In this document: positions 4,461-29,859 of the stretch, one piece after another
Layout: each line of letters begins with the position of its first letter
Position numbering within the stretch: position 1 is the first letter of the stretch
Origin: a virus
IMG/VR virus record: IMGVR_UViG_3300036770_005462
Span: 8,103 to 72,102 of that record
Strand: one strand, 5' to 3'
DNA: 64,000 bases
Made by a program: the position numbers and the translations under genes
The notes under the pieces: model-generated
The model's database searches: none
The model's input: the letters and a program-made list of their open reading frames with translations, nothing else
Told to the model about the DNA's origin: nothing

Positions 4461-5789
4461 ATGCTGCTAGAAACTTCTCTTAACCGCCAGCCAGCGAGTA
4501 ATCCGTCCGGCGCAGGCGTGTGGTCGGAAATAGCGGTCATTTCTCAGGTGCCGTCGTGGGCTACTGGGCTATACATTACTGGTCAGGGTAGCAACAGTTC
4601 CGGCGGCTACACCATCGGTGTGCGTCGTATTGGGCAGTCGTGGTCGCCAGTTAGCACCATGTGGGGGTATTCGCAGCGCGGATTCTTTGTTGAGATTGAC
4701 CCCGCAACGCGGAAAATTCAGCAGTACATCACGCAGACGACGTTCTGCAATCCGTATATTTTTGGATACTTTGGCCACGAAGCTGGCTGGCTCCATCCGG
4801 CGACGCAGCTTACCGCTACGCTGAATCAGCAGTGGGAAACGTATTCTTTTTCCCCCACTAACGGCGATCCGTGCAGCGCGGTGCTGTTGGAAGTCGTTGG
4901 CTCGACGGCGTTTGCGTTTCGGTACAAGGGCACAAGTATCGACATATCGGGGACGCTCGAAGGTGGCGGCGATAGTTTTATTGTTCCCGTTAATGCCAGT
5001 GGCGAATTCGAATTAAAAATGGATTCCGGCGTTTCTGCATACATCGTCGGCTATTTGAAAACGGGCGTGACTGCGTTCACTACTGCGCAGGAGCTTACTG
5101 TTACCCCACTGAACTCGTCGAATACGTACACCTCTCCTGCGATACCGCTCTCGGCGCGGGGGCGCAGTGGAATCGCACTGATAAAGAACATCGACGGCCC
5201 CGCTACTACAAATCGAAGTGCGATTTTGTACCATAAGGACTACACGTCGTTTCCGTGGGGTGGGGCCAATCTTTATGAGCCGGGGGCTATTGCACCCGTC
5301 TTCGCCGGACCAAAGCCGTCCAACGGGCTGTATTACTCGCCGTATTGCAACGCCAACCTCGGCATCTATTACATCGCAATGCTGGAAGATGTAGCGGAGC
5401 CTCCGCCGCCGAAGCAGTACCCGGCAGAAGACGTTACTGACGGCGGATGGTTGCCGTCCGAAAACGGTGCCGATTTGGCAGTGATGTTGGCGGACAACGA
5501 CGGCGACAAGTACATTTATGCGCGCGAGCCAACTACGTGCGAGGTGCTTCTTCTTCCGTTTGTCGATCCTGCCAGCAGCACGGGGCACACTGTGCAGTGT
5601 CGTATGTGGGTCGACGCAGGCACCCGCAACGTCAAGGTGTTTCTGATGCAGGGGGCCACTGAGAAGGCGTCGTGGACGCAGGAGGTCACGACGACGGCTA
5701 CTGTGTACACCTTTACGTTGTCCGGTGCGCAAGCGGACTCGATCACCGATTACGCCGCGCTGCGGCTTAAATTCGAATTGATGGCGTAA
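4461..5789 (+). CDS. Tail fibre / receptor-binding-like protein, paralog A; its C-terminal module is shared with the next two genes
   Basis: 442 aa. The C-terminal ~120 aa (DGGWLPSENG...LSGAQADSITDYAALRLKFE) is clearly homologous to the C-terminus of 5790..7073 and to an internal segment of 7073..10702. GC looks lower than in the flanking genes. Confidence 0.55.
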   Translation: MLLETSLNRQPASNPSGAGVWSEIAVISQVPSWATGLYITGQGSNSSGGYTIGVRRIGQSWSPVSTMWGYSQRGFFVEIDPATRKIQQYITQTTFCNPYIFGYFGHEAGWLHPATQLTATLNQQWETYSFSPTNGDPCSAVLLEVVGSTAFAFRYKGTSIDISGTLEGGGDSFIVPVNASGEFELKMDSGVSAYIVGYLKTGVTAFTTAQELTVTPLNSSNTYTSPAIPLSARGRSGIALIKNIDGPATTNRSAILYHKDYTSFPWGGANLYEPGAIAPVFAGPKPSNGLYYSPYCNANLGIYYIAMLEDVAEPPPPKQYPAEDVTDGGWLPSENGADLAVMLADNDGDKYIYAREPTTCEVLLLPFVDPASSTGHTVQCRMWVDAGTRNVKVFLMQGATEKASWTQEVTTTATVYTFTLSGAQADSITDYAALRLKFELMA

Positions 5790-7073
5790 ATGCCGACGTT
5801 TCTCCCCACCCCCATCCAGCTCACGCCGGTTTCCGGCGGGGTGTGGGAGACCCACGACCTGTCGGCGCACATCCCTGCTGGCGCGGCGGGGGCTCACATG
5901 GTGCTTGCGGGCGACGGCAGCTTCGACTACACGAACTGTGGGATTCGCCCCGTTGGTTCCACCAACGGCTTGCTATGGCAGCGGGCTGGGGTGAAGCACC
6001 ACTACTTCGTTGCGCTGAACGCCAACCGCGAAGTTCAGACCTACGTTAGCTCCGGCGGGCGGGCGTGGATCGTGGGGTATTTCAGTACCGACGAAGCGGT
6101 GTTCTTCACCGACGCCGTTTCAGTCGCGGCGACCGCGGTCGATACATGGGAAACGAAAAATATTAACGGTTCGACCGGCGCTGATCCAGTGTTGGCCGTC
6201 ATGGGCTACAACCGCGGCACGGGCAACACGTCCCCGACGAACCTTGGTTTCCGGTGCACCGGCGAAACGTATACGCCTATCGGAACCAGCGGCAGCGCCA
6301 CGTTCATCATTCCGTGCGACGGTTCAAAGCAGTTCGATATCTACACTGCAAACACTGCGCATACGTTCATGATCACGGGCTACATAAAGACCGGCTTCAC
6401 GGCAAACGCGCCCGTAGATGTGTCGACGAACAGCACGTATGGTACGAAGACCGCCCCCGCTCGCGGCGCGGTAGCAATACAGATAGACACGAATTACGCC
6501 GGCGGCAGCGGGGCAATTCGCCCCAGCTCGACGTACACGACGGCTGCACATGGCACGGGGTTCGGTAACGCCGGCCTGTCCGGTGGCATTGTGCAGACTA
6601 CGGCTTTGCGGAAGTTCGACACGTACTGCCAGAGCGCTACGCCGATCATGTACCGCATCGGGTACTTCACGGACACAATTACGCCGGATGCTCGGTACGG
6701 GCGTCCGACGGAAGATGTGGCGAAGGGAAGCTGGGTGCCGACGTCCGGGTCAACGCTGTCGCCTATGTTAGATGAGACATCGGCAGACGACGCGGACCTC
6801 GTATATACATATTCCGCAACTTCGGGCGAAGTGGTATTGAGTCCGATCACGGACCCGGCGACTAGCTCCGGGCATTCGTTGCGCGTGCGTGCGCGTTCGG
6901 ATCAGCTGCCTAAAAATCTGCGCGTAACGTTGCTACAGGACACCACGCAGATTGCACAGTGGACGGAAGCGCTGTCGGACTCATGGACTACGCACTTCTT
7001 CCCGCTGTCCGGCGCGCAGATTGACGCAATTACCGACTACGGCTTGCTCGTGGTGAGGATCGAGTCCCTGTAA
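5790..7073 (+). CDS. Tail fibre / receptor-binding-like protein, paralog B
   Basis: 427 aa. The start abuts the previous stop (TAA ATG). Its C-terminus (GSWVPTSGS...LSGAQIDAITDYGLLVVRIES) is paralogous to that of the previous gene. Confidence 0.55.
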   Translation: MPTFLPTPIQLTPVSGGVWETHDLSAHIPAGAAGAHMVLAGDGSFDYTNCGIRPVGSTNGLLWQRAGVKHHYFVALNANREVQTYVSSGGRAWIVGYFSTDEAVFFTDAVSVAATAVDTWETKNINGSTGADPVLAVMGYNRGTGNTSPTNLGFRCTGETYTPIGTSGSATFIIPCDGSKQFDIYTANTAHTFMITGYIKTGFTANAPVDVSTNSTYGTKTAPARGAVAIQIDTNYAGGSGAIRPSSTYTTAAHGTGFGNAGLSGGIVQTTALRKFDTYCQSATPIMYRIGYFTDTITPDARYGRPTEDVAKGSWVPTSGSTLSPMLDETSADDADLVYTYSATSGEVVLSPITDPATSSGHSLRVRARSDQLPKNLRVTLLQDTTQIAQWTEALSDSWTTHFFPLSGAQIDAITDYGLLVVRIESL

Positions 7074-10000
7074 TGGCGATCAGTTTCGTCTCCGCTGGCG
7101 CAGTAGCCTACACGAGTCAGAACGGCTCGAGCATTTCTGTTCCGTATCCGGCGAACATTGCGAATGGAGACGGCGTTGTTCTGATCTGCGGCATGAAGCC
7201 GGCGACGGCGAACGGCGGCACGTTCCCGACGTTGACCGGTTTCTCCGTAGCTGCCTCACTGTACGCCGCGGGCGGGTACGGGACTACGAAGGGGAACGAT
7301 ACCGGCAACACTAACGCCGTTGCGTACTTCCGCCCGTGCGACGGGACGGAAACCGGCAACCTCACGGTCTCCGTAAGCGACAGCAACATCGCGTGGGGCG
7401 TGATGTTGCGCTTCACGAAGACGGCCGGGACAGAGTGGAACTGGGACTGGGACGGCACGTGGGGCCAAGATACCACTGCTGGCACGGCTGTTTCGGTACT
7501 GCTTGATGCGGATGGCATTGGGGGTATCAGCTACAGGCCCGGCGACTTCTTCGTCGTCGGGATGTGTATTCCGACCGATGCTTCGACGCCGAATCAGTTC
7601 TCCGCGCACAGCATTTCGCTGACGAACGTCACGTTTAGCTCGGTGACGGAGGTCGTCGAGCCGGATTCGTCGGCCGGTCAGGACATTGGTGGCTTCGTCA
7701 CGTACGGATCGGTTACCGCCGCTACGAACAGCGAGGTTATTGGCGACCCCACTTACACCGCAACTGCGGGCGGCACGACGACGAACGTGCGCGGCCCGTT
7801 GGTGCTCGTTCGGTTTCGTGAGTACAAAGTCGTCAGTTCGGATCTGTCGGACGAGTACGGCGTCACTGGCGCGGTTAAGACGGACTACGCCGATTCGTAC
7901 GGCATTTTCCAGCCACAACGCGCGGCGGTGTCGTGGATCGAGTTCGACGTCGCGGACACGAAAGTTGTCTCTGACCTGTCGGACTCGTACATAACGGGCA
8001 CGACGGTACGGATTTACTCGGCTTCCTTTGCGACAAACTATGACGCCAACGTAACCGCCGTTACTTCGAGCCTCGCAGATCAGTACAACATATACGACGG
8101 CTCATCGAACCAGACAGTAACCAGCGACTACGCAGATTCGTATGAAATTTCCGGCGCAGTTACGTCCGACTACGCCGACTCCTACGGTGTTAGCGTTGGC
8201 GTTACTAGTGACTACGACGATTCGTATGCCATTGGTATCAGTGTCACTAGTGACTACGCTGACTCCTACGTTGTTAGCGCTAGCGTTACTAGTGACTACG
8301 ATGATTCGTACGCCGTCGGTACTAGTGTCGTTAGTGACTACGCCGACTCCTACGTCGTTCACGTAGCGGCTACGTCGGATTACGCCGATTCGTACGTTCT
8401 CAATTCGCAAATCACGAACGACCTCGCGGACGAGTATGTGGTCCGCACCGGCGTCACCAGCGACTACGCCGACACGTTCAATGTCGTCGCTTACAAGGGT
8501 CGCCCGAACGCGCCCAAGTCCGACGGCGGGTGGTTGCCGTCCACCGGCGGGCAGCTGTATGCCTGTATTGATGAAGTCACGCCGGATGACGTCGACTACA
8601 TCTACACCACCGGCGAAGTCCTCGGCAGCGTCTACATCGACGGGATGTCGGACCCCGGGTCCGACTTCGCACACGTGCTGTCGGTCCGGGCGTGGGCCGC
8701 GGTCGGCGCAACGCTGCCGGTTTACCTCGTTGTCAGTTTCTATCAGGAGAACGGCCCCGCTCTGCTGACGAGCGAGGTTGTGGAGCTGTCGGAAAACCCT
8801 GCGACGTTCCGGTTTACGGTGCCGACGTCGCAGTCGTCGCTGATTACTGACTACAACAACCCCGGCAAGAAGTTCGTAGTCGAGTTCCAAGCGGACCGCA
8901 TCGGTGCGCCGGCCTTCGAAGCGCGGATCTCGTGGATCGAGGTCGACGTTGCGGCGACTACGTTCCCCGTCGTAAACAACCTTGCCGACGAGTACGTCGT
9001 TAACGAGCGCGTCACCAGCGATCTGGCCGACGAGTACGTGGTGCGGCAGAGCGTGTCGAGCGATCTGGCGGATTCCTACTCTGTTAGCGCGCCGGTGTGG
9101 GCGGATCTCGCGGACGAGTACGTCGTTGCGACGTCGCTCAACAGCGATCTTGCGGATTCGTACATTGTTTATGCGCTGGTCAATCAGGACTTGCTGGACG
9201 AGTACCTCGTCTATGTGCGGACCAGCGCCGATTACGACGACTTGTACGTCCTCCGTCAGGGGGTCTCGCAAGACCTGAACGATGAGTTCGTGGTCATTGG
9301 GCGAGTCTCGTCAGACCTCGCTGATTCGTACAACGTCGAGCAGGCTGCTGGAAAGGTTACCAGCGACTACGACGACTCGTATGTCGTCCGCAACGTCGTT
9401 ACGTCGGATCTCGACGATTCGTACTTCATCACGACGCTGGTCACGACTGACTACGCGGATGAATATGTAGTCCGCGCGGCAGTCACGACCGACTACGCAG
9501 ATGAGTACGTAGTCAATGCGCCGGTTACGTCCGACTACGCGGATGAATATGTAGTCCGCAACGTCGTTACGTCGGACTACGCGGATGAATATGTAGTCAC
9601 GGGTCGCGTTACTAGCGACTACGACGACTCGTATGGAATCGCAGGCGTCGCGACCGGCGACTACGATGATTCGTACGTCGTTGCTGTCCGCGTTACCGGC
9701 GACCTCGCTGACGAGTACATCGTTCGCAACGGCGTTACGTCGGACTTCGCTGACGAGTACCTCGTTGCTTCGTCTGTCACCAGCGATCTGGCGGATAGCT
9801 ATGGCGTCGCCGGGCTTGTCACTTCTGATTACGACGACTCGTATGTCGTTCGCACCAGCGTCACGTCCGATCTCGACGACTCGTACGCCATCCGCAACGT
9901 CGTCACGTCGGATCTGGCTGACGAGTACCTCGTAATTGCGCGGGTCAGCAGCGACCTCGATGACTCGTACCTCGTCGAGGAAGTCGGCAAAGTCAGCAAC

Positions 10001-10702
10001 GACCTCGCTGATGAGTACGTCGTCCGCAACGTCGTTACGTCAGATCTCGACGATACGTACATTGTCCGTACAAGCGCCGCGTCGGACCTCGTCGATGAGT
10101 ACGTCGTCAATGCGCGGGTCAGCAGCGACCTGTCTGATTCATACAACGTCGAGGAAGTTGGCCGGGTCAGCAGCGACCTCGCCGACGAGTACGTCGTCCG
10201 CGAAGGCGTCGCTTCCAGTCTTGACGACTCTTACATCGTCCGGACTACAGTCACCCAAGATCTGGTGGATTCCTACCAGATCGCGGCACAGGCCAGCGGC
10301 GCGACCCTCGTTGTAAGTGGTGGCTTACTGCCGGGTAGTGCTACCGGTCAAGCCGTCGCGGCCGGTAGTGTCGTAAACTACCAACTGTCGCTGATTCCCG
10401 GCGCGGCCAGTGTTTCGGTCGTGGCTTCGGGGGCTACGTTAGTAGTCACTAACTCGCTGGTCAGCGGCACGGCGGTCGGCGCTGCACTTGCCAACGGCGC
10501 GCTGCTGGTAGTAACGAAGGCGCTGATCCCGGGCACGGCGGAGGGGTCGTATCCCTTCGAGGGGTACACCCCGGACCACGTGTATATGGTGCCGGCGGAA
10601 CGGCGCGGATACATCGTGCCCGAGGAGTATCGAACGCACGAGGCGACTGCCGAAGACCGCCTCTATGTGGTGAACGGAGAAACTCGGAATCAACAGGTGT
10701 AG
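7073..10702 (+). CDS. Large repetitive tail fibre/spike-like protein (1209 aa) built from about 40 tandem 14-aa acidic repeats in two blocks
   Basis: The start overlaps the previous stop (TAATG). Repeats of consensus x-V-T-S-D-[YL]-[AD]-D-[SE]-Y-[VI]-V-x-x occur in two arrays separated by the shared DGGWLP...SWIEVDV module. Confidence 0.7.
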   Translation: MAISFVSAGAVAYTSQNGSSISVPYPANIANGDGVVLICGMKPATANGGTFPTLTGFSVAASLYAAGGYGTTKGNDTGNTNAVAYFRPCDGTETGNLTVSVSDSNIAWGVMLRFTKTAGTEWNWDWDGTWGQDTTAGTAVSVLLDADGIGGISYRPGDFFVVGMCIPTDASTPNQFSAHSISLTNVTFSSVTEVVEPDSSAGQDIGGFVTYGSVTAATNSEVIGDPTYTATAGGTTTNVRGPLVLVRFREYKVVSSDLSDEYGVTGAVKTDYADSYGIFQPQRAAVSWIEFDVADTKVVSDLSDSYITGTTVRIYSASFATNYDANVTAVTSSLADQYNIYDGSSNQTVTSDYADSYEISGAVTSDYADSYGVSVGVTSDYDDSYAIGISVTSDYADSYVVSASVTSDYDDSYAVGTSVVSDYADSYVVHVAATSDYADSYVLNSQITNDLADEYVVRTGVTSDYADTFNVVAYKGRPNAPKSDGGWLPSTGGQLYACIDEVTPDDVDYIYTTGEVLGSVYIDGMSDPGSDFAHVLSVRAWAAVGATLPVYLVVSFYQENGPALLTSEVVELSENPATFRFTVPTSQSSLITDYNNPGKKFVVEFQADRIGAPAFEARISWIEVDVAATTFPVVNNLADEYVVNERVTSDLADEYVVRQSVSSDLADSYSVSAPVWADLADEYVVATSLNSDLADSYIVYALVNQDLLDEYLVYVRTSADYDDLYVLRQGVSQDLNDEFVVIGRVSSDLADSYNVEQAAGKVTSDYDDSYVVRNVVTSDLDDSYFITTLVTTDYADEYVVRAAVTTDYADEYVVNAPVTSDYADEYVVRNVVTSDYADEYVVTGRVTSDYDDSYGIAGVATGDYDDSYVVAVRVTGDLADEYIVRNGVTSDFADEYLVASSVTSDLADSYGVAGLVTSDYDDSYVVRTSVTSDLDDSYAIRNVVTSDLADEYLVIARVSSDLDDSYLVEEVGKVSNDLADEYVVRNVVTSDLDDTYIVRTSAASDLVDEYVVNARVSSDLSDSYNVEEVGRVSSDLADEYVVREGVASSLDDSYIVRTTVTQDLVDSYQIAAQASGATLVVSGGLLPGSATGQAVAAGSVVNYQLSLIPGAASVSVVASGATLVVTNSLVSGTAVGAALANGALLVVTKALIPGTAEGSYPFEGYTPDHVYMVPAERRGYIVPEEYRTHEATAEDRLYVVNGETRNQQV
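8140..8480 (+). repeat. Tandem 42-bp (14-codon) imperfect repeats, block 1, about 8 units
   Basis: Repeated ...GTTACTAGTGACTACGCYGAYTCSTACG... units are visible in the DNA. They encode SVTSDYADSYVV-like units. Confidence 0.8.
8960..10290 (+). repeat. Tandem 42-bp (14-codon) imperfect repeats, block 2, about 30 units
   Basis: Units such as VTSDLADEYVVRN, VTSDYADEYVV and VSSDLADSYNVEE recur continuously. The array casts a long spurious antisense ORF at 8102..9271. Confidence 0.8.
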
Positions 10703-10705
10703 CCC

Positions 10706-11023
10706 ATGGCAGACACGTTCGTCGTTACAGTCGGGAAGCCGACCATCACCAAGGACCCCAACGCAGTTCTTGACTATTCCATCGACTGGACAGACTGGCT
10801 ACTGGCGGCTGCGCCAGACGACACCATCCAAATTCACCAAGTCATTCTCCAAGCCGATACCGATTTGGTAGTAGAGCAGAGCGCCGTCGTCGGCGGCACC
10901 CGCGTTACCTTTTGGCTGTCCGGCGGCACTGCCGGCACAACGGAGCGCGTTGTGTGTCGCATTACCACAGTTGATGGGCGGGTCGATGATCGCTCGGTGT
11001 GGTTGAAGATCAAGGAGCGGTAG
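10706..11023 (+). CDS. Hypothetical small protein
   Basis: 105-aa ORF lying 3 nt after the fibre gene stop. Confidence 0.45.
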   Translation: MADTFVVTVGKPTITKDPNAVLDYSIDWTDWLLAAAPDDTIQIHQVILQADTDLVVEQSAVVGGTRVTFWLSGGTAGTTERVVCRITTVDGRVDDRSVWLKIKER

Positions 11024-11024
11024 A

Positions 11025-11378
11025 GTGAGCTTAGAGTCACACGACCTCGACGTCGCCGGAAAACTCGGCGGTCTGGCCGCGGAACTCGCCGGCATGAAGA
11101 ACACATTGGGGAATCACATTACAGACGAAGACATTCGGGACGAGAAGATCCTGAAGCTTGTGACAGAGATCCGCGAGGCTCTGCCCAGTATGGAGACGCA
11201 CCGGCAACACCATGACGCCATCGAGCTTTGGCTGATGCGTCAAAAGAAGCGCCAAGAGATCCTTGACAAGATCTTGGCGGAATCCGGCAAGAGCGTTTTC
11301 ATCGCCCTCCTAGGTGCGCTCTGCTTTCTATTGTGGGAGGGCCTGAAAGTGGGGCTTCGTGCAAAAGGCGTCTCTTGA
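11025..11378 (+). CDS. Holin-like protein or membrane-anchored small protein (single C-terminal TM)
   Basis: 117 aa. The N-terminus is charged and helical, and the C-terminus carries a hydrophobic segment FIALLGALCFLLWEGL. It lies immediately upstream of the lysozyme gene. Confidence 0.35.
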   Translation: MSLESHDLDVAGKLGGLAAELAGMKNTLGNHITDEDIRDEKILKLVTEIREALPSMETHRQHHDAIELWLMRQKKRQEILDKILAESGKSVFIALLGALCFLLWEGLKVGLRAKGVS

Positions 11379-11525: not shown

Positions 11526-12629
11526 TTGTGTGCGGAGCGTGCCGTGACTAGTCGGATGCCGCGTTGGGAGCAGGCGCTAGCCCATCCCAATGTTCGGGCA
11601 TTCCTTCGCGTCATTCGCCAAGGCGAGTCGAACCAGACTGACAACGCTTACCGCATGATGTTCGGTGGTGAGCTGTTTGAGGGTAGCTTCGCCGATCACC
11701 CCCGCCGCAAGATCACCAAGCCGCTGGGCGGCAAGCCCATAACGAGTTCCGCGGCCGGGGCCTATCAGTTTTTGGAGCGGACGTGGACGTCGCTGGTGGC
11801 GCTCTACGGTTTCTCCGACTTCAGCCCCAAGAATCAGGACCTTGGCGCGGTTGCGCTGATCGAGGGCCGAAAGGCGCTCGACGACGTGCTGGCCGGGAAG
11901 TTTGATGTTGCAGTGCGCAAATGCGCTTTGGAGTGGGCAAGTCTCCCCGGCAGTCCGTACGGACAGCCGATGATGTCCATCGAAAAGGCGCGCCAGCTTT
12001 ACGTATCGTTTGGCGGGGAGTTCGCTCCCGCCGCCCCTGTTCCGAAATCGGAGGCTGCTGTGGCCCTTCCCCTTCTTGGCATTGCAGCCGCTGTGCTGCC
12101 CTCCCTGATCCAAGCCGCGCCGGATCTTCTCAAGATCTTCAACGATCCGGACAACCCGGACAAGACCAGCCGCGAGCGCGACGCCGAGTTGGCCGTCAAG
12201 GTGTTGGAGATCGCCAAGGAAGCTACGGGCGCGACCACCGTTGAAGAGGTCATTCCCGCGGTGCAGTCGCCGGAAGGCCAAGAGGCGTTCCGCGAGGCCG
12301 TCAAGAGTGAGTGGTTCCAGCTGCAGCAAGCGACTGAAAAGTCCGTCGACACCGCCCGCAAGTACGCGGTTGAGTACGCCCAGATCAAGAACGTACGGAC
12401 ACTGTTCGGCAAGTGGTTCCGGATCACGTTCCTTGAGTTCCTGTCGCTGGTGTTCGTGGTGATCAGCGCCGGGGGCGCTTACATGGTGCTGACCGATGAG
12501 TCCTTCGGGGAGCAGATGCGTGGCGCGGTGATTACGCTGATCCTGATCGGCGGCTTTACCGGCGTGCAGAACTTCTGGCTTGGTAGCTCGCTGGGCTCCA
12601 AGATGAAAGAGGACAAGAAGCAGGAGTGA
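11526..12629 (+). CDS. Lambda-R-like lytic transglycosylase (GH104-type lysozyme) with a C-terminal double-TM extension; the start is ambiguous among TTG 11526, GTG 11544 and ATG 11556
   Basis: The N-terminal domain aligns by eye with phage lambda R: GGELFxxxxDHPR...AAGAYQFLxRTW...DFSPKNQD...WASLPGSPYGQ. The C-terminal 100 aa contains two hydrophobic helices (FLEFLSLVFVVISAGGAYMVL and AVITLILIGGFTGVQNFWLG). Confidence 0.75.
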   Translation: MCAERAVTSRMPRWEQALAHPNVRAFLRVIRQGESNQTDNAYRMMFGGELFEGSFADHPRRKITKPLGGKPITSSAAGAYQFLERTWTSLVALYGFSDFSPKNQDLGAVALIEGRKALDDVLAGKFDVAVRKCALEWASLPGSPYGQPMMSIEKARQLYVSFGGEFAPAAPVPKSEAAVALPLLGIAAAVLPSLIQAAPDLLKIFNDPDNPDKTSRERDAELAVKVLEIAKEATGATTVEEVIPAVQSPEGQEAFREAVKSEWFQLQQATEKSVDTARKYAVEYAQIKNVRTLFGKWFRITFLEFLSLVFVVISAGGAYMVLTDESFGEQMRGAVITLILIGGFTGVQNFWLGSSLGSKMKEDKKQE

Positions 12630-12771: not shown

Positions 12772-13182
12772 GTGTGTTCGAAGGAATTCGAACATCGCCG
12801 ATCAGTAGTATGTTGCTCTCACTCTTGCGCTGCGACGCTCCAACACCGGGTTTTGGGCCCCCCGGGCTGGAAAGGCGGGCTGACTAGAGTCAATGGCTAC
12901 CTACGGCAGTATGCGCCGGATCACCCCCACGCAGTCAACAGCTACGTGGCCCAGCACCGGCTCATCATGGAGAAGCACATCGGTCGGTTCCTGCACCCCC
13001 GCGAGCGTGTACACCACAAGAACGGCCAGCGGGATGACAACCGGATCGAGAATCTGGAACTGTGGACGCTGGGCCGAAAGGACCCCCATGGCGTCCGAGT
13101 GGAAGACCTGTTGCGGGAAATGATCCACCAGCACCCCGAATTGGCCGAGCAGATCATCAAAGAACGCGACCCCGACGCCTGA
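12772..13182 (+). CDS. HNH homing endonuclease (HNH_3-like), free-standing
   Basis: Motifs GYLRQY...HRLIMEKHIG...VHHKNGQRDDNRIENLELWT match the HNH/AP2-associated endonuclease core. It is inserted between the lysozyme and a structural gene, with about 140 bp of structured non-coding sequence upstream. Confidence 0.7.
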   Translation: MCSKEFEHRRSVVCCSHSCAATLQHRVLGPPGWKGGLTRVNGYLRQYAPDHPHAVNSYVAQHRLIMEKHIGRFLHPRERVHHKNGQRDDNRIENLELWTLGRKDPHGVRVEDLLREMIHQHPELAEQIIKERDPDA

Positions 13183-20620: not shown

Positions 20621-23311
20621 ATGAAGAAGGTCAAATCGAACGTCACGCAGGACTTCAACACCAAGCGCGGTCTGCGTATGTACGCGGATGGCGGGCTCGT
20701 CGGCACCGCTGCCACGGGTCTGCGCAACCGGCATAACCAGATCGACGCTGCGGTGAACGGCGCGCCTACGGCGCAGCCCGCGGTGGCGACGAAGCCTGTA
20801 GCGCCCGCTCCTGCGCCGGCCCCCGCAAAGCCCATCGAGAAGCCCGCTCGCGTGTTCGGCGTCCCTATCGGTGGCCCGGTCGGCAGCGCCCTGCGCAAGC
20901 TGGGCATGAAGGACGGCGGCGAGGTGAAGGGCCCCGGCGGTCCGCGGGACGACAAAGTGCCGGCGAAGGGCCCGCAAGGCGAGCGCGTGCAGCTGTCGAA
21001 CGGCGAATATGTGCTGCCGTGGGAGACCGTCGACGCGCTTGGCGGCGCGGAAGAGCTGGACGAGCTGGTACGTGAGACCACGGGCCGCGAGCCCGGCCCG
21101 AAAGTCATTGGCGGCGTGCCGCACGCTGCGGCTGGCTGGGGTCTGAAGAAGGCGCTTGGCAACACCGACGTGGTGGAAGCGACTGCCGCTGATTTCGAAG
21201 CGGCGGGCGGCACCAAGCCCGCCAAGCCGGCGACACCGGTGCAGTCCGCTGCGCCGTCGAACCTCGGTTCCCGGTACGAGGCGTGGCGCAACAAGGCCAC
21301 TAGCGCTCTGCGCCGTGGCATCGACGTCGCTGGGCCGAAGGTGAGAGAAGTCGTCGGCGACCTGCGTGGTGCTGCTTCCGTTGGCGCAGAGGACGGCGCA
21401 GCTGCTGGAAGAGCCGCCGCGGCAAACGTCGGCGGGCGTGTGGGTCCGGCCCTCGGCGCAGTACAGGGTGCGGTGGAGAAAATCCCCGGCGTCGCCCCGT
21501 CGGTGAAGGGCGTGACCGTGGCCGACGCCACGCTGAATGACTTCGCCAAGGCACGTGCTGCCAGCGACCCGGCGTATCAGGACGTTACACAGCGCGCCGC
21601 GGCGAATCGCGCGCGGATGCCGGGCTCGATTGCGTCTTCGACGCAGACTGTGGCCCCCGGTGGTGGTGGCGGAACCCCGCCGTCGCCCCCGGGCGGAGGT
21701 GGCGGAGGTGGTGGCAAGCCCCCGGTAGGCGGCGCGCCGAAGTGGTATCAGCCGTCGGGCTTCGGTGCCAAGGCGTCGACCAAGCTCGTCGGTGCGGCCG
21801 GCAAACTCGGCGCTCCGCTCGCTATTGGCTCCGCAATTCCTGCCACCGCCGACATGGACGTGGACGCGCAAGCGCGGAACATGGGTGTTACGCTCGACCG
21901 CGACAACAGCGCGTGGGACATGGCCAAGGAGTTCTACGTCCGCGGCGCTGGCGCGCTGCGCAACATCGCCAGCAACGCCTCGTTCGGTCTGGTCGATCAA
22001 GCGCCGCGGCTGAACCCGCCCGAAGGCGCGCAACCCGCCGGTCCCGCTCTTGCCGCGGCTGGTCCTGCCGGTGCGAATCCTGACGTGCGTCGGGCGCTGA
22101 TTGATATGGGCGTGGACGATCCGTCGCGTCCGCCGGTGCCGCAGAACATGCGCGGTGACATATTGCGCAGCGCACGTCCTGATCCGGGTGCGTACATCAA
22201 CTTCGGCAACTATGGCGGCAACGCCGACGTGTACGGCACGGCGTCGCGCCCGGGCGGTCGGGTCAACAACTTCGCGGCCTCGGGTGGCCCGGGCAACGGC
22301 CCCGGCTACGACATGCAGCGCAACCTCGAATCCATGGCGCGCGCCAACGCGATTCGACAATCGATGATCGACTCCCAGCCGCAAGGCTCGCCGAGCGAGT
22401 TTCGCGACACGTCCGCAGCAGCCGAGACCGACGCCTTCGGCAAGACTGCAGCGCAGCGGCAGGAAGAGTCGGACGACTACAACTTGCGTCTGGCGATGAC
22501 GCGCGCCGGCAGCGGGCCGATCCCCGCCGGTTTGCGCGCGCAGCAAACGGCCATGTTGAACAACAAGTCCGAAGAAAAGCGCAACGCGCTGGACAACCAG
22601 ACGCGTACCCGCGGGCAGGATTTGTCCTACGACCTCGGCCTGCGCGGCGACCGCACGCAGCAGCGCGGCCAGAACATGACGTACGACCTCGGCATGCGCC
22701 GTGACGACACCGAACGATACGGTGTGGATTCCGTTGCGGGCAGCAACCGCGCGCGCCTGCGGCTCGATGCGGCCAAAGCCAACATGGAAACGGGCGACCG
22801 CCGTGCCACGGTTATGCGCGATGAGCTGAAGGACTTCGTGGGCCTTAACGTCAAAGACGGCAACACGGCCGAGAACCAAGAGCGGTTCAACCGGATCTAC
22901 CGCACGGCTGCAGCAACCGTCGGCAAAAACGGCATCGACCTGTCGCAGCTCGACCCGAACATTCGTACTGAGATCTACAAGCTTGCGGACCGCAAAGAGA
23001 AGATCGACGGCGAAAACGCAGCGCTCATCAACCAGCTGCTTGAATCCGTTGGCGTACGCGGGCGCAGCTTCCGGAGCGACAACGTGCTGGACTACGAGCC
23101 GAATCGCTTCGAGCGCGGGCGCTTCGGCGACACGTACTACTCCAACACCGGCGAGCAGTCGTATCAGCAAGTCGTCGGCGACGGTACGGACAAGGCCGGT
23201 CCGAGCTGGCAAGTGTGGACTGGGCAGACGCCTTCGCTGGAAGGGGCCCGCCGCGCTGACCGGCTTCAACAAGAAGAGCGTGAACGGATTCTTCGTAACG
23301 GGGGTCGTTAA
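20621..23311 (+). CDS. Gly/Pro/Ala-rich internal virion protein (896 aa)
   Basis: Low-complexity tracts such as GGGGGTPPSPPGGGGGGGGKPPVGG are present. Its TAA stop overlaps the next ATG (TAATG). The antisense 889-aa ORF at 20603..23272 is Arg-rich shadow. Confidence 0.55.
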   Translation: MKKVKSNVTQDFNTKRGLRMYADGGLVGTAATGLRNRHNQIDAAVNGAPTAQPAVATKPVAPAPAPAPAKPIEKPARVFGVPIGGPVGSALRKLGMKDGGEVKGPGGPRDDKVPAKGPQGERVQLSNGEYVLPWETVDALGGAEELDELVRETTGREPGPKVIGGVPHAAAGWGLKKALGNTDVVEATAADFEAAGGTKPAKPATPVQSAAPSNLGSRYEAWRNKATSALRRGIDVAGPKVREVVGDLRGAASVGAEDGAAAGRAAAANVGGRVGPALGAVQGAVEKIPGVAPSVKGVTVADATLNDFAKARAASDPAYQDVTQRAAANRARMPGSIASSTQTVAPGGGGGTPPSPPGGGGGGGGKPPVGGAPKWYQPSGFGAKASTKLVGAAGKLGAPLAIGSAIPATADMDVDAQARNMGVTLDRDNSAWDMAKEFYVRGAGALRNIASNASFGLVDQAPRLNPPEGAQPAGPALAAAGPAGANPDVRRALIDMGVDDPSRPPVPQNMRGDILRSARPDPGAYINFGNYGGNADVYGTASRPGGRVNNFAASGGPGNGPGYDMQRNLESMARANAIRQSMIDSQPQGSPSEFRDTSAAAETDAFGKTAAQRQEESDDYNLRLAMTRAGSGPIPAGLRAQQTAMLNNKSEEKRNALDNQTRTRGQDLSYDLGLRGDRTQQRGQNMTYDLGMRRDDTERYGVDSVAGSNRARLRLDAAKANMETGDRRATVMRDELKDFVGLNVKDGNTAENQERFNRIYRTAAATVGKNGIDLSQLDPNIRTEIYKLADRKEKIDGENAALINQLLESVGVRGRSFRSDNVLDYEPNRFERGRFGDTYYSNTGEQSYQQVVGDGTDKAGPSWQVWTGQTPSLEGARRADRLQQEERERILRNGGR

Positions 23312-26300
23312 TGGCGGGGCTTCGGCTTTACTCTCTTCCGCCTGAAGAGGAGCGCCCGCTTACCCCGTACGAACAGGCGGTACGCGGTGTCGATTCCTCG
23401 GGCGGTGAGTTCGGCCGGGGCGTAACTTCTGGCTTGCTTGGCGCTTTCGGTGGCGGCTACAACGCTACTGCGGGTGCCTTTCAGGAAGCGATGGGCGGCG
23501 ACCCCACGCGTTCCTACGACACGTCGCGAGGGCTGCTGCGCCGCGCCGGACAGGCCGCGCCCATCGTCAACAACTGGGACAAGGTCAATGGTGTTGGCGA
23601 CTTTCTCGATTACGCTGCGGGCGCTGCCGGACAAGGACTGGCATCGACGGCTCCGGGCGTAGCGGCGACGCTGCTGACTCGCAGTCCGCGGGTTGGCCTC
23701 GCCACGATGTTTCCGATGGAAATGGGCGAGTCAGTTGCAGCGACTCGCTTTGACCCCAGCATCCAGCAGCCCGACACTGCGACCATGCTGAGTGGCGCGG
23801 CCACTAAAGGCGCAGTGAATACCGCCATCGAGGCGGTGCCGTTCATGAACATCTTTGGTCGCGGTCCGCTGCGCCCGTTGATGAAAGCGGCAACGATGCC
23901 CGCTCGCGCTGGTGGACACATGCTGGCGGAAGGCGGCACCGAGCTGGCGCAACAGCGGGTCGGACAGCTTGCGCAGGACTACATGGTTCCGGGGCGCGAC
24001 ACCAGCGAAGACAACATGGAGTTGCGCGAGGCGTTTCTGCAAGGCACGCTGGGCGCAACCCCGTTCGCTGGCATGTCCCTCGCCGGCCACGCAGCGCGCG
24101 ATGCGGGCGTTGGAATGTCGAGTGCAATCGACAAGCTGTTTCCAGCAAAGGGCGAACCGACGGCGCTGGACGACCTCATCGAGTCGACGAAGAGCGTCGG
24201 TACGAAGCTGAAAGAGAAGTTCGACCCGGTCCTCGGCAAGGACACGGCCGAGACGATGGAGAACCTGCGCAAGCCGGTCGACGTCGACGCGCTGAACGAA
24301 GGCAAGCAGTTCAACCTGATGCGCCCCGGCGTGGACACGGCTGAAGACGACATCAAGAAGAAGCACAGCTTCCTGCGGCAGCAGCTGGGCAACAAGCACA
24401 CGTGGCTGGCCGAGCCGCTGGCGAAGGCGATGGACCGCTACCTACGTGGCGACACGCCGGGCGGCGACGACGCCAAGTTCAAGCAGGCGATCCTTGAAGC
24501 GTTCGACGGCAACGTCGAGCGGGCCAACGGCGTCATGGAACACTTCGCCAAGGCCGTCGAAGACTTCAGCGGCACGCTGGGCGAGCGCACCACGATCTAC
24601 GACACGGCGCGTGAGCCGTCGTGGGGCGACCGCGAGGCAGACGACGACACCGCGGCTGCGCCGGAAGGTCCGGCTATCGAGGAAGGCGGGCAGGAGTACA
24701 CGCCCAAGGCCAACTACCGCTTCGCCGGCACGGGCCGTCTGCGCCCGTACGAGAACCGCGCACAGGCTGGTGCGGCCCGCCGCGCGCTGGGAGCGGCTGA
24801 GGGCTCGAAGGTCAAAGTGCGCACGATGCTCGACTGGGCCCAAGAGCGTGGCAAGGACCCGGACAAGGCCCTGACCGACATGATCGGCGGACTGCGCTAC
24901 GACCTGAACGACATCCAGAAGCGGCTTCAGGATCGCGACATGCCGAAGGAGCAGCGCGAAGACTTGTTGCAACGCAGTAACGAGATCGTGTCGCTGCTGC
25001 GCAAGGCGATCCCGACAACTGACCCCGACACGGGCGAGATCACGGACTCCGCGACCGAGCGGCTGTCGAAGCTGTTCGTGCTGCGCGGCGAGGCTCTGCC
25101 GGCCGACGACCTGACTGCCACGTCGGAAGAGATCGCTGCCTACGCTGACAAGCGCGAGGCGTTTGGCGGGGCCAAGGGCGCGATGGTCAAGTTCCGCGCG
25201 CCGAACGGCAAGGTGCAGAACTTCAACGCGCGGCAGATCCTCGACCTCGGTCTGAAGTCGTGGAGCAAGCGCAACCCGGATCAGAAGTTCGTCGATGGCC
25301 CGGCGCACTGGCGGCGCGTGTATGAAGACGGCATCGCACGGCTGACGAACGCCGGGTACGTCCCGGATCAGTCGGAGCGCAACGGCGCGTTCCGTCCGTC
25401 GCTTGTCGTGCGCGACGGCGAGACCTACGGCGGGCTGGTTGAGAAGACGGCGCAAAGCGGCCAGACATTCGACGCGCTGCGCGACGAACAGTTTGGCGCA
25501 GACGCTGCGGCGGACCAGCGTGCCATCCTGAGCGAGCCGATGCAGGCGTCGCCGCAGGAGATTGCGGCACGTAAAGCGGAGGGCTGGGTTCCGCCGACGG
25601 TGGCTCCGGAAGAACAGAGTTCTGGCCGCGGCGACCGCATGGTCGAGACGAATCTGCTGAACCGCGAGAGCCAGCAGGGACCGGAAGGCAACGTCGGCGA
25701 GGGCTTCGACCCGACGCTGAACACGCTGCGCGATCAGGACCCGGACGGCCCGCGGCTGTTTGACGAGAACATCGTCAACAGCGCGAATCCCGACTTCGCC
25801 CCCGAGCGCCTCGAAGACACGCTGGCCAAGCCATACATGGTTCCGGACAAGCGGGCCAAGGGCGGCGCACGCAAGGCCAAGGGCGAGGAAGTCCGTGTCT
25901 CAGGCGCTCCGCTGGCGCAGCCGCAGGCTGCGACCGGTAGCAACTTGGAGAAGCTGCAGGGGCTGAAGGACCACATCGAGGCGTACCGCGCCAACCTAGA
26001 ACAGCGCGGCATCGACCCGACGAAGGCCCCGACGATGCGCCTGTTGCTCAAGCGCATGGCCGAGCTGGAAGCCGAGCGCACGAAGCTGACGAAGGAAGAC
26101 GTCGCCGCGGAGGAATCCGTAGCCGACACCGCCGCGCGCGAGGAAGCTAACCGTGCGCTCAAGCGGGAAGAGGCTGCGGCCGAGAAAACGCGCATGGCGG
26201 AAGTCACCAAGACACAGGTGATCGAGCCAGCGGAAAAACCCAAGGCTGCTCCAAAGAAATCCAAGAAGAAAGCCAAGGGCTACCGCTACGAGATCAAAGA

Positions 26301-29300
26301 CGACATGACCGAAGACGAGGTCGGCGAGACGCGCCGCCTCGAATTGATCAACGACCTGAAGAAGGCCGGCGGGGTCAACCTGCAGGACGTCATGGACGTT
26401 ATTGGCGAGCGCAAAGCCCGCGGCGTGAAGGTCATGCCGGGGCTGTTCACCAAGACCGGCATGCGCGTCGACATGCTCGCCGAGTGGATGGCCGAGAACG
26501 GCTACATCGCCGACGAGAGCGAGACCGACAAGGCGTGGGACATCGTCCGCGCCGCCACGGACAAGCAGGGCGTCTTCAAGATCGAGGATCAGGACGACCT
26601 CGGCCGTCGCCGCTTCGAAGAGCGGGCGAACAAGGAATACAGCCGGATGGATCTGTCCGGCGGGGCCGGCCAGAAGCTTACGGCCGACGAACGGCAGGCA
26701 CTGATCAAGGAGATCGTGCGGCTGCGCGGCACGCAGCTGCAGATCGCGTTCAAGGAGTTCGCCCAGATGGGTCCGGCCAAGCTGGACGCCAAGGGCAACC
26801 CGATCCTTGACGCCAACGGCGACCCGGTGCGGCAGGGTGCGTCTGGCGAGTGGTCGAAGGACAAGACCGCTGCCCACGCGCAGAAGATCATCACGCTGGC
26901 TGTCGACATTGGCTTTTCCAACGCGATGTCGGTTGCGCACCACGAGGCGGTGCACGACTTCTTCGCGGCGCTGCGCAGTGCGGATTCCTCGCCGGAAATG
27001 CGCAACATCGCCATGACTATCGAGCGTGTTGCGGAATTACCACACATCCGGAAACAGCTCGAAACGCTGCTGAAAAAGCACCCGGAAGCGCTGGAACAGC
27101 TCAAAAACCCTGAAGAGCGCGCAGCCTACCTGTTCCAGTTCTGGAAGGCGGGCCTCATCAAGGATCTGGCTCCATCGGCGCGCAATTGGTTCGAACGTCT
27201 GCTGAAGTTCCTCCGCGACGTGCTGGGCATCGTGTCGCTGGAAGAGAAGGGCGAGAAGCTGATGCTGGCGCTGGACGCCGGCAAGTTCACTGACGCCAGC
27301 ACCGTCGGTCGCGTGGTGGCCCAGATGAAGCTGGAAACCGCCGGCGACAAGCTGCAGCGCGTGGCTCCTGCGCTGTGGCATGTCGGAAACGTCGTCATGG
27401 CGAGCGTCACCGACCGCATGCGGCTGACTGAGGTGCCGGCCATCATGGCAATCGCCGACCGCCTGCACCGGGATGTCAGTCGGCAGACTGGCATGCGGGA
27501 CGACCGCCGCCCGGGGGCTACGAAAGCTGACCGGCGTAACGACCCCACCGAGCAGACCGACTTCCTTGACGCCAAGCAGCGCGCTAGCGGTATCTGGTAC
27601 TCGCAGCTGCTGAACCTGTTTCAGGGGGCCGACAAGTTCCAGATCGCCGACGCGCTGGAAGCGCTGCAGTCGCAGGAAGACAGCACGGACCCGATGGTGG
27701 TCAAGATCCGCGCCTTCCTGAAGCGCTTTCACGAGTACCTGTCGAAGGCTGACGTGATGGTCATGGACGACAGCCCGTACGAGAAGATCGACTCGAAGGG
27801 CAAGACCGTGTGGGTCTCGGGCGACGCAGCGCGGCGCTGGGTCCCGATTGCCGAGCGGCAAGTCGGGAACTACTTCCCGCGTTCGTGGGACCGCGAGAAG
27901 ATCATGGCCCACAAGGACGCGTTCGTGGACCTGATCGTGCAGAAGGGCCGCGAGGGCAACAAGACCGTGACGCGCGAGCGGGCACTGGAAATCTTCGACA
28001 CGATGACCAGCGCCGAGCAGGACGAGATCGCGGACGGCGCGGCGTTCACGCCGTACCTGATGAGCGCCAACACCCGGGCGCTGCGCTTCATTACCAAGGA
28101 CAACGCCAAGGACTTCGCCAAGTTCCAGAAGAAGGACATGGTGGCGATCCTGTCCACGTACACCTATCAGGCCGTGCACCGGGCGGAGTTCACCCGCTAC
28201 TTCGGCCATGACGGGCAGTGGATCAGGGAGAAGCTGGCGGAGGCCGAAGCTCAGGGTGCTACGCCCGAGCAGATGGCGACCGCGCGCAAGGGCGTCGAAG
28301 CCATGCTGGGCTCGCTGGGCCGCGACATGACTGAAGGCACCCGCAAGCTGATGACCTCGCTGATGGCGTACGAGAACATCGTGCTGCTGCCGCTGGCGCT
28401 GGTGAACAACTTCATGGACGTGCTGCAGATCGGGCTGCGTACCGGCGACCTGACCGAGTCATTCAACGCCATGAAGCAGGGGGTCATCGGCTTGAAGCGG
28501 CAGATCATGCGGGAGGGCCCGGACGAAGCCGAGCAGTTCTCGCGCTTGCTGGGCATGATCGACGAGAACGTCGAGCTGGCCAGCTACGGCATGCTGTACG
28601 ACGGTCACTTCATGGGCGGCATGGCGAAGAAGGTCAGCGACAAGTTCTTCCGCTGGAACGGCATGGCGACGTGGAACACGCGCATGCGCGTGGCGGCGAC
28701 GCAGGCCGGGGTGCGCTTCATCGAGCGGCACGCCGACAAGGCGCTGAAGGGTGACGAGCAGTCGATCCGCTGGCTGAAAGAGCTGGGGCTGGAAAAGAGC
28801 GACGTGCGGCGCGACAGCAACGGCAAGCCGATGTTCAAGCGCGAAGACTGGGCGCAGAAGCTGAACAAGCCGGTCGACAGCAAGGAAGTCATCGCCGCCG
28901 CTGACCGCATGCAGAAGGCGCTGTTCCTGTTCGTCGACAGTGCCGTGATCCGGCCCTCCGCGGCGCACCGGCCGATCTGGGGCTCCGATCCGCACTGGAT
29001 GCTGGTGTTCCACCTGAAACAGTTCACGTACAGCTTCCAGCAGGTGGTGCTGAAGTACACCCGCAAGGAACTGCAGCACGGCAACAGCTTCCCGGCCATC
29101 GCACTGATGATGTACGTGCCGTTCGCGATGGTGACCGACCTTACCCGGTCGGCCATCGTCGGACGCCCAATCGACTTCTCGCTAAGTGGGTTAATGGGTA
29201 GCGCAGTACGCAATTCGGCCGTGCTGGGTACTGGCACCTTCGGCATCGACGCGTGGAACGACCTTGGCAAGAATCAGGTGCCGGGCGCGTCGTTCCTCGG

Positions 29301-29433: not shown

Positions 29434-29859
29434 ATGTACTGCATTCGGGAAGTCGACGGTGATGAGGAGGCCGAGGTCATCGGGGAGCTGCATCGTATCT
29501 GCCTGCCGCATGACGAGCTGCCATCGACCACTGACGGTTGGTGGTGGCTCGCCTATGCGGGTGACGTAGCCGTCGGCTACGCCGGCATGCGGGATGCCAA
29601 GAGTGAGCCCGGAGCGGCGTTTCTCTGCATCGCCGGCGTAGTTCCCGAACACCGCGGCAAGGGCCTGCAGCGCAGGCTGATCAGGGTCCGGGTGCAGAAG
29701 GCGCGCCGCTTGATGAAGCGCGCCGTAATCTCCTACACGATGGACAACGCGCCGAGCGGCAACAACCTGATCGCTTGCGGCTTCCGTTTATACAGCCCAG
29801 ACAAGCGCTGGGAGGGCGGGGATGTGGCCTACTGGCGCAGACTTCTGGTGAATGACTAG
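29434..29859 (+). CDS. GNAT family N-acetyltransferase (141 aa)
   Basis: Acetyl-CoA binding motif VVPEHRGKGLQRRLI (Q/R-x-x-G-x-G/A). The size matches a single-domain GNAT. The start lies 4 nt after the giant gene stop. Confidence 0.65.
   Translation: MYCIREVDGDEEAEVIGELHRICLPHDELPSTTDGWWWLAYAGDVAVGYAGMRDAKSEPGAAFLCIAGVVPEHRGKGLQRRLIRVRVQKARRLMKRAVISYTMDNAPSGNNLIACGFRLYSPDKRWEGGDVAYWRRLLVND

Follow-up and report, generated by a model that had tools for sequence, protein, structure and literature searches.

We analysed a 64,000-nucleotide stretch of viral DNA, positions 8,103 to 72,102 of IMG/VR virus record IMGVR_UViG_3300036770_005462, and focused on one gene whose 1209-aa product is a predicted phage fibre carrying two arrays of a tandem 14-residue repeat. 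The whole stretch, hereafter the window, is a phage genome: its products include a major head protein (PHROG 334), and it encodes an Hc3-like 'head closure' protein and large structural proteins that are about 40% identical to those of F116-like Pseudomonas podophages. The other arm of the window specifies a DNA polymerase A, an SNF2 helicase and a primase-like protein. No tRNA genes were found in the window and no Rfam families in the region of the fibre gene. The source is an uncultured podophage, distantly related to the F116-like Pseudomonas phages. The fibre gene lies between the capsid gene and the Hc3-like gene, the slot occupied in F116 by p50/p51, and is divided into the following features, all on the plus strand, with the evidence for each in brackets.

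7073..10702 (+): fibre gene, an intact open reading frame (ORF) of 1209 aa (ORF list, G+C content at third codon positions (GC3), start overlap, identical protein in two Logan assemblies)
7073..7837 (+): N-terminal beta-sandwich (residues 1-255), a putative binding head
7829..8113 (+): degenerate repeat region (residues 253-347) with three loose units, about one degenerate unit and the motif SWIEFDVA
8114..8491 (+): array 1, nine contiguous units (residues 348-473) (pattern scan; Tandem Repeats Finder periods of 42 and 84 bp at 8168-8396)
8492..8965 (+): middle globular domain (residues 474-631) (C-terminus of the upstream ORF matched by BLASTP at E 3e-13)
8966..10288 (+): array 2, 31 units (residues 632-1072) in runs of 9, 15, 4 and 3 with insertions of 2-3 aa between them (pattern scan, net charge, family profile)
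10289..10699 (+): C-terminal tail (residues 1073-1209, 137 aa), a candidate attachment end (22-aa register)

The gene has a GC3 of 0.74, matching that of its flanking genes, and its ATG start and the upstream stop codon overlap in the sequence TAATG. Two metagenomes assembled in Logan, SRR11566349 and SRR11566350, encode the identical protein. Other frames and the minus strand over 8100-10300 also contain long ORFs, of up to 389 aa, for example at 8102-9271 (-); those across the arrays were rejected as genes and are attributed to the 42-bp periodicity, of which they are by-products.

A pattern scan resolves 43 repeat units, spaced at exactly 14 residues save for three insertions of 2-3 residues. 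Three of these units, starting at residues 255, 269 and 299, are loose (residues 253-312), nine form array 1 and 31 form array 2, which gives 40 in-register units in the two arrays. One further degenerate unit can be made out by eye at about residues 329-342, bringing the degenerate units to 3-4. Tandem Repeats Finder independently returns the 42- and 84-bp periods. A preliminary description of this DNA had reported the 1209-aa ORF, two arrays with approximate counts and coordinates, and an acidic consensus; all of these are borne out. The consensus reads x-V-T-S-D-[Y/L]-[A/D]-D-[S/E]-Y-V-V-x-x. D8 is invariant among the in-register units (40/40), D5 and Y10 are each present in 38 of the 40, V2 in 34 and V12 in 32. 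Position 10 is Tyr or Phe, and position 12 Val, Ile or Leu, in every in-register unit; position 6 is always Leu, Tyr or Phe, and the variable positions are 1, 11, 13 and 14. The net charge amounts to -70 in array 2 (441 aa) and to -21 in array 1 (126 aa). The degenerate region ahead of array 1 is modelled by AlphaFold2 with a predicted local distance difference test score (pLDDT) below 50, and a version of its motif, SWIE.DVA, recurs in the translation at residues 620-627, immediately ahead of array 2.

At the DNA level the units are diverged. Identity between units averages 55% and reaches at most 83%, protein identity averages 50%, and Tandem Repeats Finder matches amount to only 68-82%. No exact stretch of at least 30 nt occurs twice within the gene, and just four 24-mers are repeated. 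Neighbouring units resemble each other no more than distant ones do, and this flatness of identity along the array indicates that there have been no recent duplications. Synonymous codons are mixed even where Asp, Tyr or Val is invariant, D8 being encoded by GAT in 20 units and by GAC in 20. The only relatives available for a comparison of copy number are the exact copies from the two Logan samples, which have the same gene length; the second Logan contig opens partway through the N-terminal domain, and its distance to the stop codon from that point equals that in the window. Given the low DNA identity, the absence of any match of 30 nt or more, the mixed codons and the equal length in both assemblies, the array is an old one that selection on the protein pattern has preserved, and not an expansion of recent date or low stability. 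Repeats of the kind given in the preliminary description, 'long near-identical 42-bp DNA repeats', are not found, and the expansion or contraction by recombination that had been built upon them is not supported. That the repeats act as a recombinational cassette, altering copy number and hence shaft length or host range, could draw on the spread of about 8 to 60 units across members of the wider family described below, a range indicating that expansion and contraction did occur over evolutionary time. With units about 55% identical in DNA, no long exact match, identity that does not fall along the array and equal gene length in two samples, such a cassette is highly improbable here. A 28-aa super-repeat of two units, suggested by the 84-bp rows, was also rejected: it was seen in 28 of 116 family proteins, which is below chance, and the window fibre has only a faint excess at even lags, at variable positions.

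The repeat matches none of the established families examined. Searched alone, the arrays return nothing meaningful from Pfam even at E<=10, the matches to DUF3386, DUF5382_C and YadA_anchor being at chance level and all under curated cut-offs; the whole fibre matches 0 Pfam families at E<=0.1, and the arrays have no NCBIfam or PDB-sequence match. An RTX test (GGxGxDxUx nonapeptide, HemolysinCabind) likewise gave no Pfam match on the arrays at E<=10, and the Hexapep, adenovirus shaft and Pfam phage tail-fibre repeat models gave none. The Gly-X-Y triplets of collagen-like fibres do not fit the arrays either, since Gly accounts for just 3.2% of array 2 and no period of three residues is seen. In the literature, no description of a 14-residue phage fibre repeat was found. 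The earlier view that the unit belongs to no named repeat family, and is neither RTX nor collagen-like, thus holds for Pfam, NCBIfam and PDB sequences; nor is the unit a Pfam phage-fibre repeat.

Relatives were nevertheless recovered from larger collections (P-numbers below are labels of related database proteins, L-numbers those of contigs). The whole fibre, searched against 5.8 billion sequences, gave 122 matches, the best 120 of which were examined by local BLAST. Among these 120, residues beyond 240 are matched in five proteins, four of them over the middle domain, and P0051 alone also matches the repeats; all the remaining matches fall in residues 1-250, the N-terminal domain. A 4-unit profile was then built from the window and P0051 units and used in an exhaustive HMMER scan of 1.84 billion cluster representatives (50% identity), which retrieved 799 clusters at E<=1e-3, 414 at E<=1e-10 and 89 at E<=1e-30. 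Word-indexed homologue searches with repeat-only profiles (A1, A3) gave no match; since HMMER found hundreds, including P0051 in the same collection, these nulls are taken to reflect a limit of the index and not absence. A 12-unit profile built from foreign members, with no window sequence in it, matches the window fibre at E 1.2e-108 (aligning from residue 330), KVP40 gp15 at 4.9e-30 and the J-like tail protein of Aeromonas phage AVP3 at 6e-15; it does not match six other large window proteins. The fibre gene itself has no nucleotide match among 50,697 phage records (megablast, cultured phages), and no close relative of it was found in scans of IMG/VR or GTDB genomes.

The commonest unit of the family is x-V-T-S-D-x-D-L-R-W-x-V-R-N, and a minority, among them P0142, P0148, P0159, P0161, P0165 and P0185, has the window form S-D-L-A-D-S-Y-x-[IL]-R-A. 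Across 600 family units, positions 2, 6, 8, 10 and 12 are predominantly hydrophobic and odd positions predominantly polar, with the frequencies at 2, 10 and 12 inflated by the inclusion of these positions in the rule by which units were selected. As read from these sequences, the family core combines hydrophobic residues at 2 and 12 with an aromatic one at 10 and often Asp at 5; the acidic residues are not conserved family-wide. The window fibre has the exact 14-aa tandem units, the core positions and arrays of at least 8 units. In several members of the DLRW subtype, the arrays are matched by PHROG 6079, annotated as 'tail protein', at 1e-16 to 1e-24. The window fibre has no PHROG match at E<=0.01, and its link to PHROG 6079 therefore runs through the family profile only.

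Family members are phage proteins of varied construction. The 20 that were looked up are metagenomic and either unnamed or 'hypothetical'. Proteins of the family are typically built of 200-600 variable N-terminal residues (including, in P0122, a right-handed beta-helix and, in P0150, a PhoD-like phosphatase), followed by 8-60 units and a C-terminal tail usually of 20-80 aa. All seven contigs examined are viral: P0122 is encoded last, following a Baseplate_J module, P0051 between capsid and head-completion genes of a siphophage-like contig, and P0142 in a podophage-like contig. In KVP40, gp15 (451 aa, gene 15, L011 1820-3172; the neck/tail-terminator or tail sheath stabilizer/completion protein) carries about 15 units as a C-terminal extension of about 200 aa, and the J-like tail-tip protein of Aeromonas Casjensviridae phages terminates in about 18 units. 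By tblastn, up to 8 repeat-bearing places are seen per KVP40-like genome.

The globular parts of the window fibre have a different distribution. The N-terminal domain, among the best 120 of 122 matches, is common to more than 100 bacterial surface and phage proteins, and its AlphaFold2 model is confident and all-beta, with weak similarity to carbohydrate-binding modules (CBMs) and glycosidase accessory domains. Hosts of the domain include proteins named MshQ/DUF6701, multihaem cytochromes and large surface proteins of Patescibacteria, and the domain is often in tandem, as at the N-terminus of bacterial MshQ/DUF6701 proteins of about 1290 aa (P0002-P0018; in P0002 at residues ~47-290 and 290-520). 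It is also inserted in the phage J-like host-specificity protein P0020. The N-domain thus appears to be a widespread surface domain, as yet without a model. The middle domain has the motif W-x-P-S-x-G-x-x-L-x-x-x-[IL]-D-E-x-x-x-D-D-x-D-Y-[IV], and the same module stands before an N-domain of this type in five unrelated metagenomic proteins, P0035, P0031, P0056, P0022 and P0058. Neither domain has a Pfam, PHROG or NCBIfam model. A combined alignment of residues 1-640, misaligned by MAFFT, was not used for structure prediction. The N-terminal regions of DLRW-subtype members look like the N-domain by eye, and homology was rejected when hhalign gave a probability of 0.2% for P0130; for P0148, hhalign produced a junction match only, and the idea was dropped. 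The C-terminal tail consists of four 22-aa repeats rich in Ala, Gly and Val, followed by motifs of the Y-x-V-P-x-E type, and has no Pfam match.

For the arrays themselves, AlphaFold2 was run on a single chain of 12 units (residues 761-928) with a gapless family alignment of 51 rows. The model has a mean pLDDT of 63.6 and a predicted template-modelling score (pTM) of 0.50, and follows a regular EEEE---EEEE--- pattern of two 4-residue strands per unit. The predicted strands occupy unit positions 9-12 ([S/E]-Y-V-V) and 2-5 (V-T-S-D), and between them lie the conserved [Y/L]-[A/D]-D corner and a variable loop of positions 13-14-1. In Foldseek comparisons, the model comes closest to beta-helices: in the PDB to tapirin and to the left-handed helices of GlmU, LpxA and LpxD, with no match better than E 0.065 or TM 0.44, and in BFVD to unannotated, solenoid-like viral predictions. 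The modelling supports an extended stacked-beta rod without singling out a particular fold. Of the beta-solenoid shaft proposed in the preliminary description, the solenoid-like rod with two strands per unit is retained in the model, and the specific fold is left without a significant PDB counterpart at this confidence.

The genes on either side bear on how such a rod might be mounted, and two of them concern the fibre directly.

5790..7073 (+): upstream gene, 427 aa (C-terminal domain paralogous to the fibre middle domain)
10706..11023 (+): adaptor gene, 105 aa, a homologue of the GP4 fibre-tail adaptor gp77 (Pfam PF23148, E 6.9e-25)

The adaptor gene starts 4 nt past the fibre stop codon. 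Its match to PF23148 ('Podophage GP4 fiber-tail adaptor protein gp77') exceeds the curated cut-off, and its product matches the solved GP4 chain PDB 8jou_D at E 5.5e-8. In GP4, a podophage of Ralstonia, according to PMC11445570, 15 copies of the 93-residue Ig-like gp77 ring the dodecameric head-to-tail adaptor and hold three fibre sets, described as sets of five fibres. The GP4 gene order is a 568-aa protein, the adaptor and the solved 439-aa tail fibre (8jov). The adaptor domain also occurs in P0117 (950 aa, L012 10001-12853), which fuses an N-domain of the window type, some fifteen Ala/Val-rich repeats of 22 aa and, at the C-terminus, a Gp77 domain; P0117 is encoded in a siphophage-like contig, directly after a 395-aa gene taken as the capsid gene. 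Kinship between these 22-aa repeats and those of the window tail was considered and set aside as not significant (E 0.007 without composition correction). In the upstream 427-aa protein, the C-terminal domain (nt 6666-7070) is 31% identical over 134 aa to the fibre middle domain (BLASTP, E 3e-13); the protein has no Pfam, PHROG or PDB match and none in cultured phages. It is probably a further fibre, or an accessory protein, belonging to the same module.

Further along the plus strand, the adaptor gene is followed by genes for a 117-aa protein with one C-terminal hydrophobic segment (11025-11378) and a 367-aa protein (11526-12629) whose N-terminal 160 residues match lysozyme/endolysin PHROGs (PHROG 90) and whose C-terminal portion is hydrophobic. 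These two genes may form a lysis cassette, or they may provide a virion-associated lysin, within the structural block. An HNH endonuclease gene (12772-13182) comes after the 367-aa gene. Two large proteins, of 896 aa (20621-23311, +) and 2039 aa (23311-29430, +), have no Pfam match; by position, the latter is the counterpart of F116 p59 (2129 aa, annotated as a methyltransferase) and of the giant DarB-like protein of GP4, and it is followed by an acetyltransferase-like ORF at 29434-29859.

Modular architecture, family membership and phage context together support the earlier prediction of a fibre-like phage virion protein. Beyond that description, the analysis adds the very large repeat family, three globular modules alongside the arrays and the adaptor homologue next to the fibre gene. 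The reading that we favour, and hold to be fairly probable, is that of a surface-exposed fibre whose rod arrays present globular modules, held at its C-terminus by the adaptor and with the N-domain directed outward. In this scheme, the two arrays would fold as long, rigid, beta-structured rods that space the N-terminal beta-sandwich, the probable binding head, and the middle beta domain and present them away from the particle. The rods would measure about 4 nm and about 15 nm in a solenoid with one coil per unit, or roughly twice as much with two layers per unit in an intertwined trimer. The C-terminal 137 residues would dock to a ring of the gp77-like adaptor at the neck or tail, and fixing at that end would leave the N-domain pointing outward. 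Classical tail fibres have the N-terminus on the virion. The reverse polarity proposed here, with the C-terminus on the virion and the N-terminus distal, is put forward tentatively, as plausible though not as the expected arrangement; it is argued from the variable N-terminal heads and the conserved C-terminal array and tail of the family, from the tight pairing of fibre and adaptor genes, and from the fusion of the same type of N-domain to a C-terminal Gp77 domain in P0117.

Several observations weigh against this reading. Membership of the virion is a prediction from sequence and gene context, and the argument for polarity consists of one fusion protein, from a siphophage-like contig, and gene adjacency. 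The fibre has no sequence similarity to p50 or the 987-aa p51 of the corresponding F116 slot. Nor is it similar to the 568-aa GP4 protein encoded upstream of gp77 (BLASTP E>1), and there was no match between the upstream ORFs and the 325-aa protein of GP4 or between the upstream 442-aa ORF and the solved 439-aa GP4 tail fibre. As to the rod, confidence in the array model is moderate, and its best match to a solved fold is not significant (E>=0.065). The hydrophobic/polar alternation over positions 2-12 of the family unit would also agree with a fold of the hairpin-meander type, in which each unit forms a single long strand. An analysis of unit-unit coupling over 1802 neighbour pairs (solenoid i-i versus meander i-(14-i)) did not tell the two models apart, only chain-adjacent boundary couplings standing out. 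Finally, five large hydrophobic residues in 14 are too many for the core of a tight monomeric coil, and the monomer model may be wrong in kind, which would point to an oligomer.

The rod may be obligately trimeric, with three chains intertwined in a triple beta-helix or beta-spiral like those of adenovirus and other phage fibres, in place of the monomeric solenoid modelled by AlphaFold2. Besides the high hydrophobic content per unit, the modest confidence of the monomer model despite a family alignment would be understandable in such an assembly, phage fibres are as a rule trimeric, and the 7-residue spacing of strands at half-unit intervals would suit the alternating layers of a three-fold prism. 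The ratio of 15 gp77 copies to sets of five fibres in GP4 (PMC11445570) is consistent with trimers. No sequence or fold match links the arrays to shafts of the gp5, endosialidase or adenovirus type, and we regard the obligate trimer as quite possible without expecting it.

A second alternative is that the arrays are themselves the adhesin, binding host surface polymers or divalent cations multivalently instead of serving as a passive shaft. A beta rod of this length, with its variable positions at the surface and, in the window subtype, densely laddered with Asp, would then play a part analogous to that of the accessory Ig-like domains of phage structural proteins. The array lies distally, at the very C-terminus and with no domain beyond it, in the Aeromonas J-like proteins and KVP40 gp15; the module is attached to unrelated virion proteins (tail tip, neck, stand-alone fibres); and the charge of array 2 and the near-invariance of D5 and D8 would suit a binding surface. 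Most members, however, have separate head-like globular domains, such as the right-handed beta-helix and the PhoD-like phosphatase, the window protein has its own N-domain weakly similar to CBMs, and the lack of family-wide conservation of the acidic residues means that metal binding is not the general role of the family. We consider an adhesive array possible but unlikely.

The fibre could also be a head or neck (collar) fibre or whisker and not a host-recognising tail fibre. P0051 and P0117 are encoded straight after the capsid gene, ahead of head-completion genes, the KVP40 array is on gp15 at the neck, and the GP4 adaptor ring sits at the head-to-tail adaptor, as described in PMC11445570. 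In podophages, however, fibres attached at the neck are the tail fibres, so that the distinction is small here, and P0122 occupies the classical tail-fibre position after baseplate genes; a collar role in place of host recognition seems improbable.

Within the favoured reading of a C-terminally held fibre, a ladder of divalent cations along Asp5/Asp8, by analogy with RTX proteins, is a reasonable idea for the acidic subtype, in which the near-invariant Asp5 and Asp8 flank each corner and the position-9 Arg of the DLRW subtype is missing. Many members do not have the acidic residues, and such a ladder would thus not be general to the family. The most far-reaching proposal, that the unit is an overlooked, widespread fibre or adhesion module of virions with a fold class unseen in solved structures, mounted in reverse, with acidic rods stiffened by an Asp5/Asp8 cation ladder, is in our view doubtful as a whole. 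The unseen fold might be a very tight solenoid of 14 residues per turn or a new intertwined beta rod.

The interest of these results lies in the repeat family more than in the single gene. With at least 799 clusters, hardly any named members and neither a Pfam or NCBIfam model nor a solved structure, the repeat is a common fibre building block that is invisible to annotation and to structure-based prediction of host range. Receptor-binding fibres set phage host range and are engineering targets; a family model, one structure, and tests of attachment and of spacer versus adhesin function would make many 'hypothetical' phage proteins interpretable. The repeat is also a possible new rigid-rod scaffold for protein design. 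For the window phage itself, the genes at 4461-11023 are the probable host-recognition apparatus.

Podophage GP4 (PDB 8JOU/8JOV; Zheng et al. 2023, cited in PMC11445570) resembles the window phage in that a homologue of its gp77 adjoins the window fibre gene. GP4 is likewise a podophage, of about 60 kb, with several fibre-like genes in one block; it differs in that the GP4 proteins compared do not align to the 14-aa arrays, and in that its solved fibre gene comes after the adaptor gene, whereas the window fibre gene comes before it. Short tandem units that stack short strands into an elongated rod are also found in the triple beta-helix of T4 gp5C/VgrG, the left-handed hexapeptide beta-helices and the RTX beta-roll. 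The period of the window repeat is 14, compared with 8, 6/18 and 9/18 in those rods, and the window arrays are without Gly-rich turns. In RTX proteins, Asp residues of the turns bind Ca2+; the window subtype has an Asp-x-x-Asp corner in every unit. The triple beta-spiral of the adenovirus fibre and reovirus sigma1, a 15-residue pseudo-repeat, forms the shaft of a viral attachment fibre. Its unit is of similar length and likewise has two short strands, one conserved turn and one variable loop, but the window repeat has another hydrophobic spacing, no conserved Gly/Pro turn and no sequence match to it.

Closest in sequence are the arrays of PHROG 6079, KVP40 gp15 and the Aeromonas J-like proteins, which share the period and the core (V2, D5, aromatic 10, V/L 12). 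Most family members have S-D-x-D-L-R-W, in which Asp and Arg could pair, whereas the window has the rarer acidic form S-D-[LY]-[AD]-D-[SE]-Y; the window fibre is also unusual in the family in having two arrays split by a globular domain. Fraser and colleagues reportedly found, in 2006, accessory Ig-like domains scattered over phage structural proteins. The 14-residue repeat is comparably a module on many unrelated virion proteins, in capsid-proximal, neck, tail-tip and fibre positions, but it is a rod of short tandem repeats and not a globular Ig-like domain. An attachment fibre with a repetitive beta shaft and a small adaptor is already known, as is the adaptor family; what is new is the repeat.

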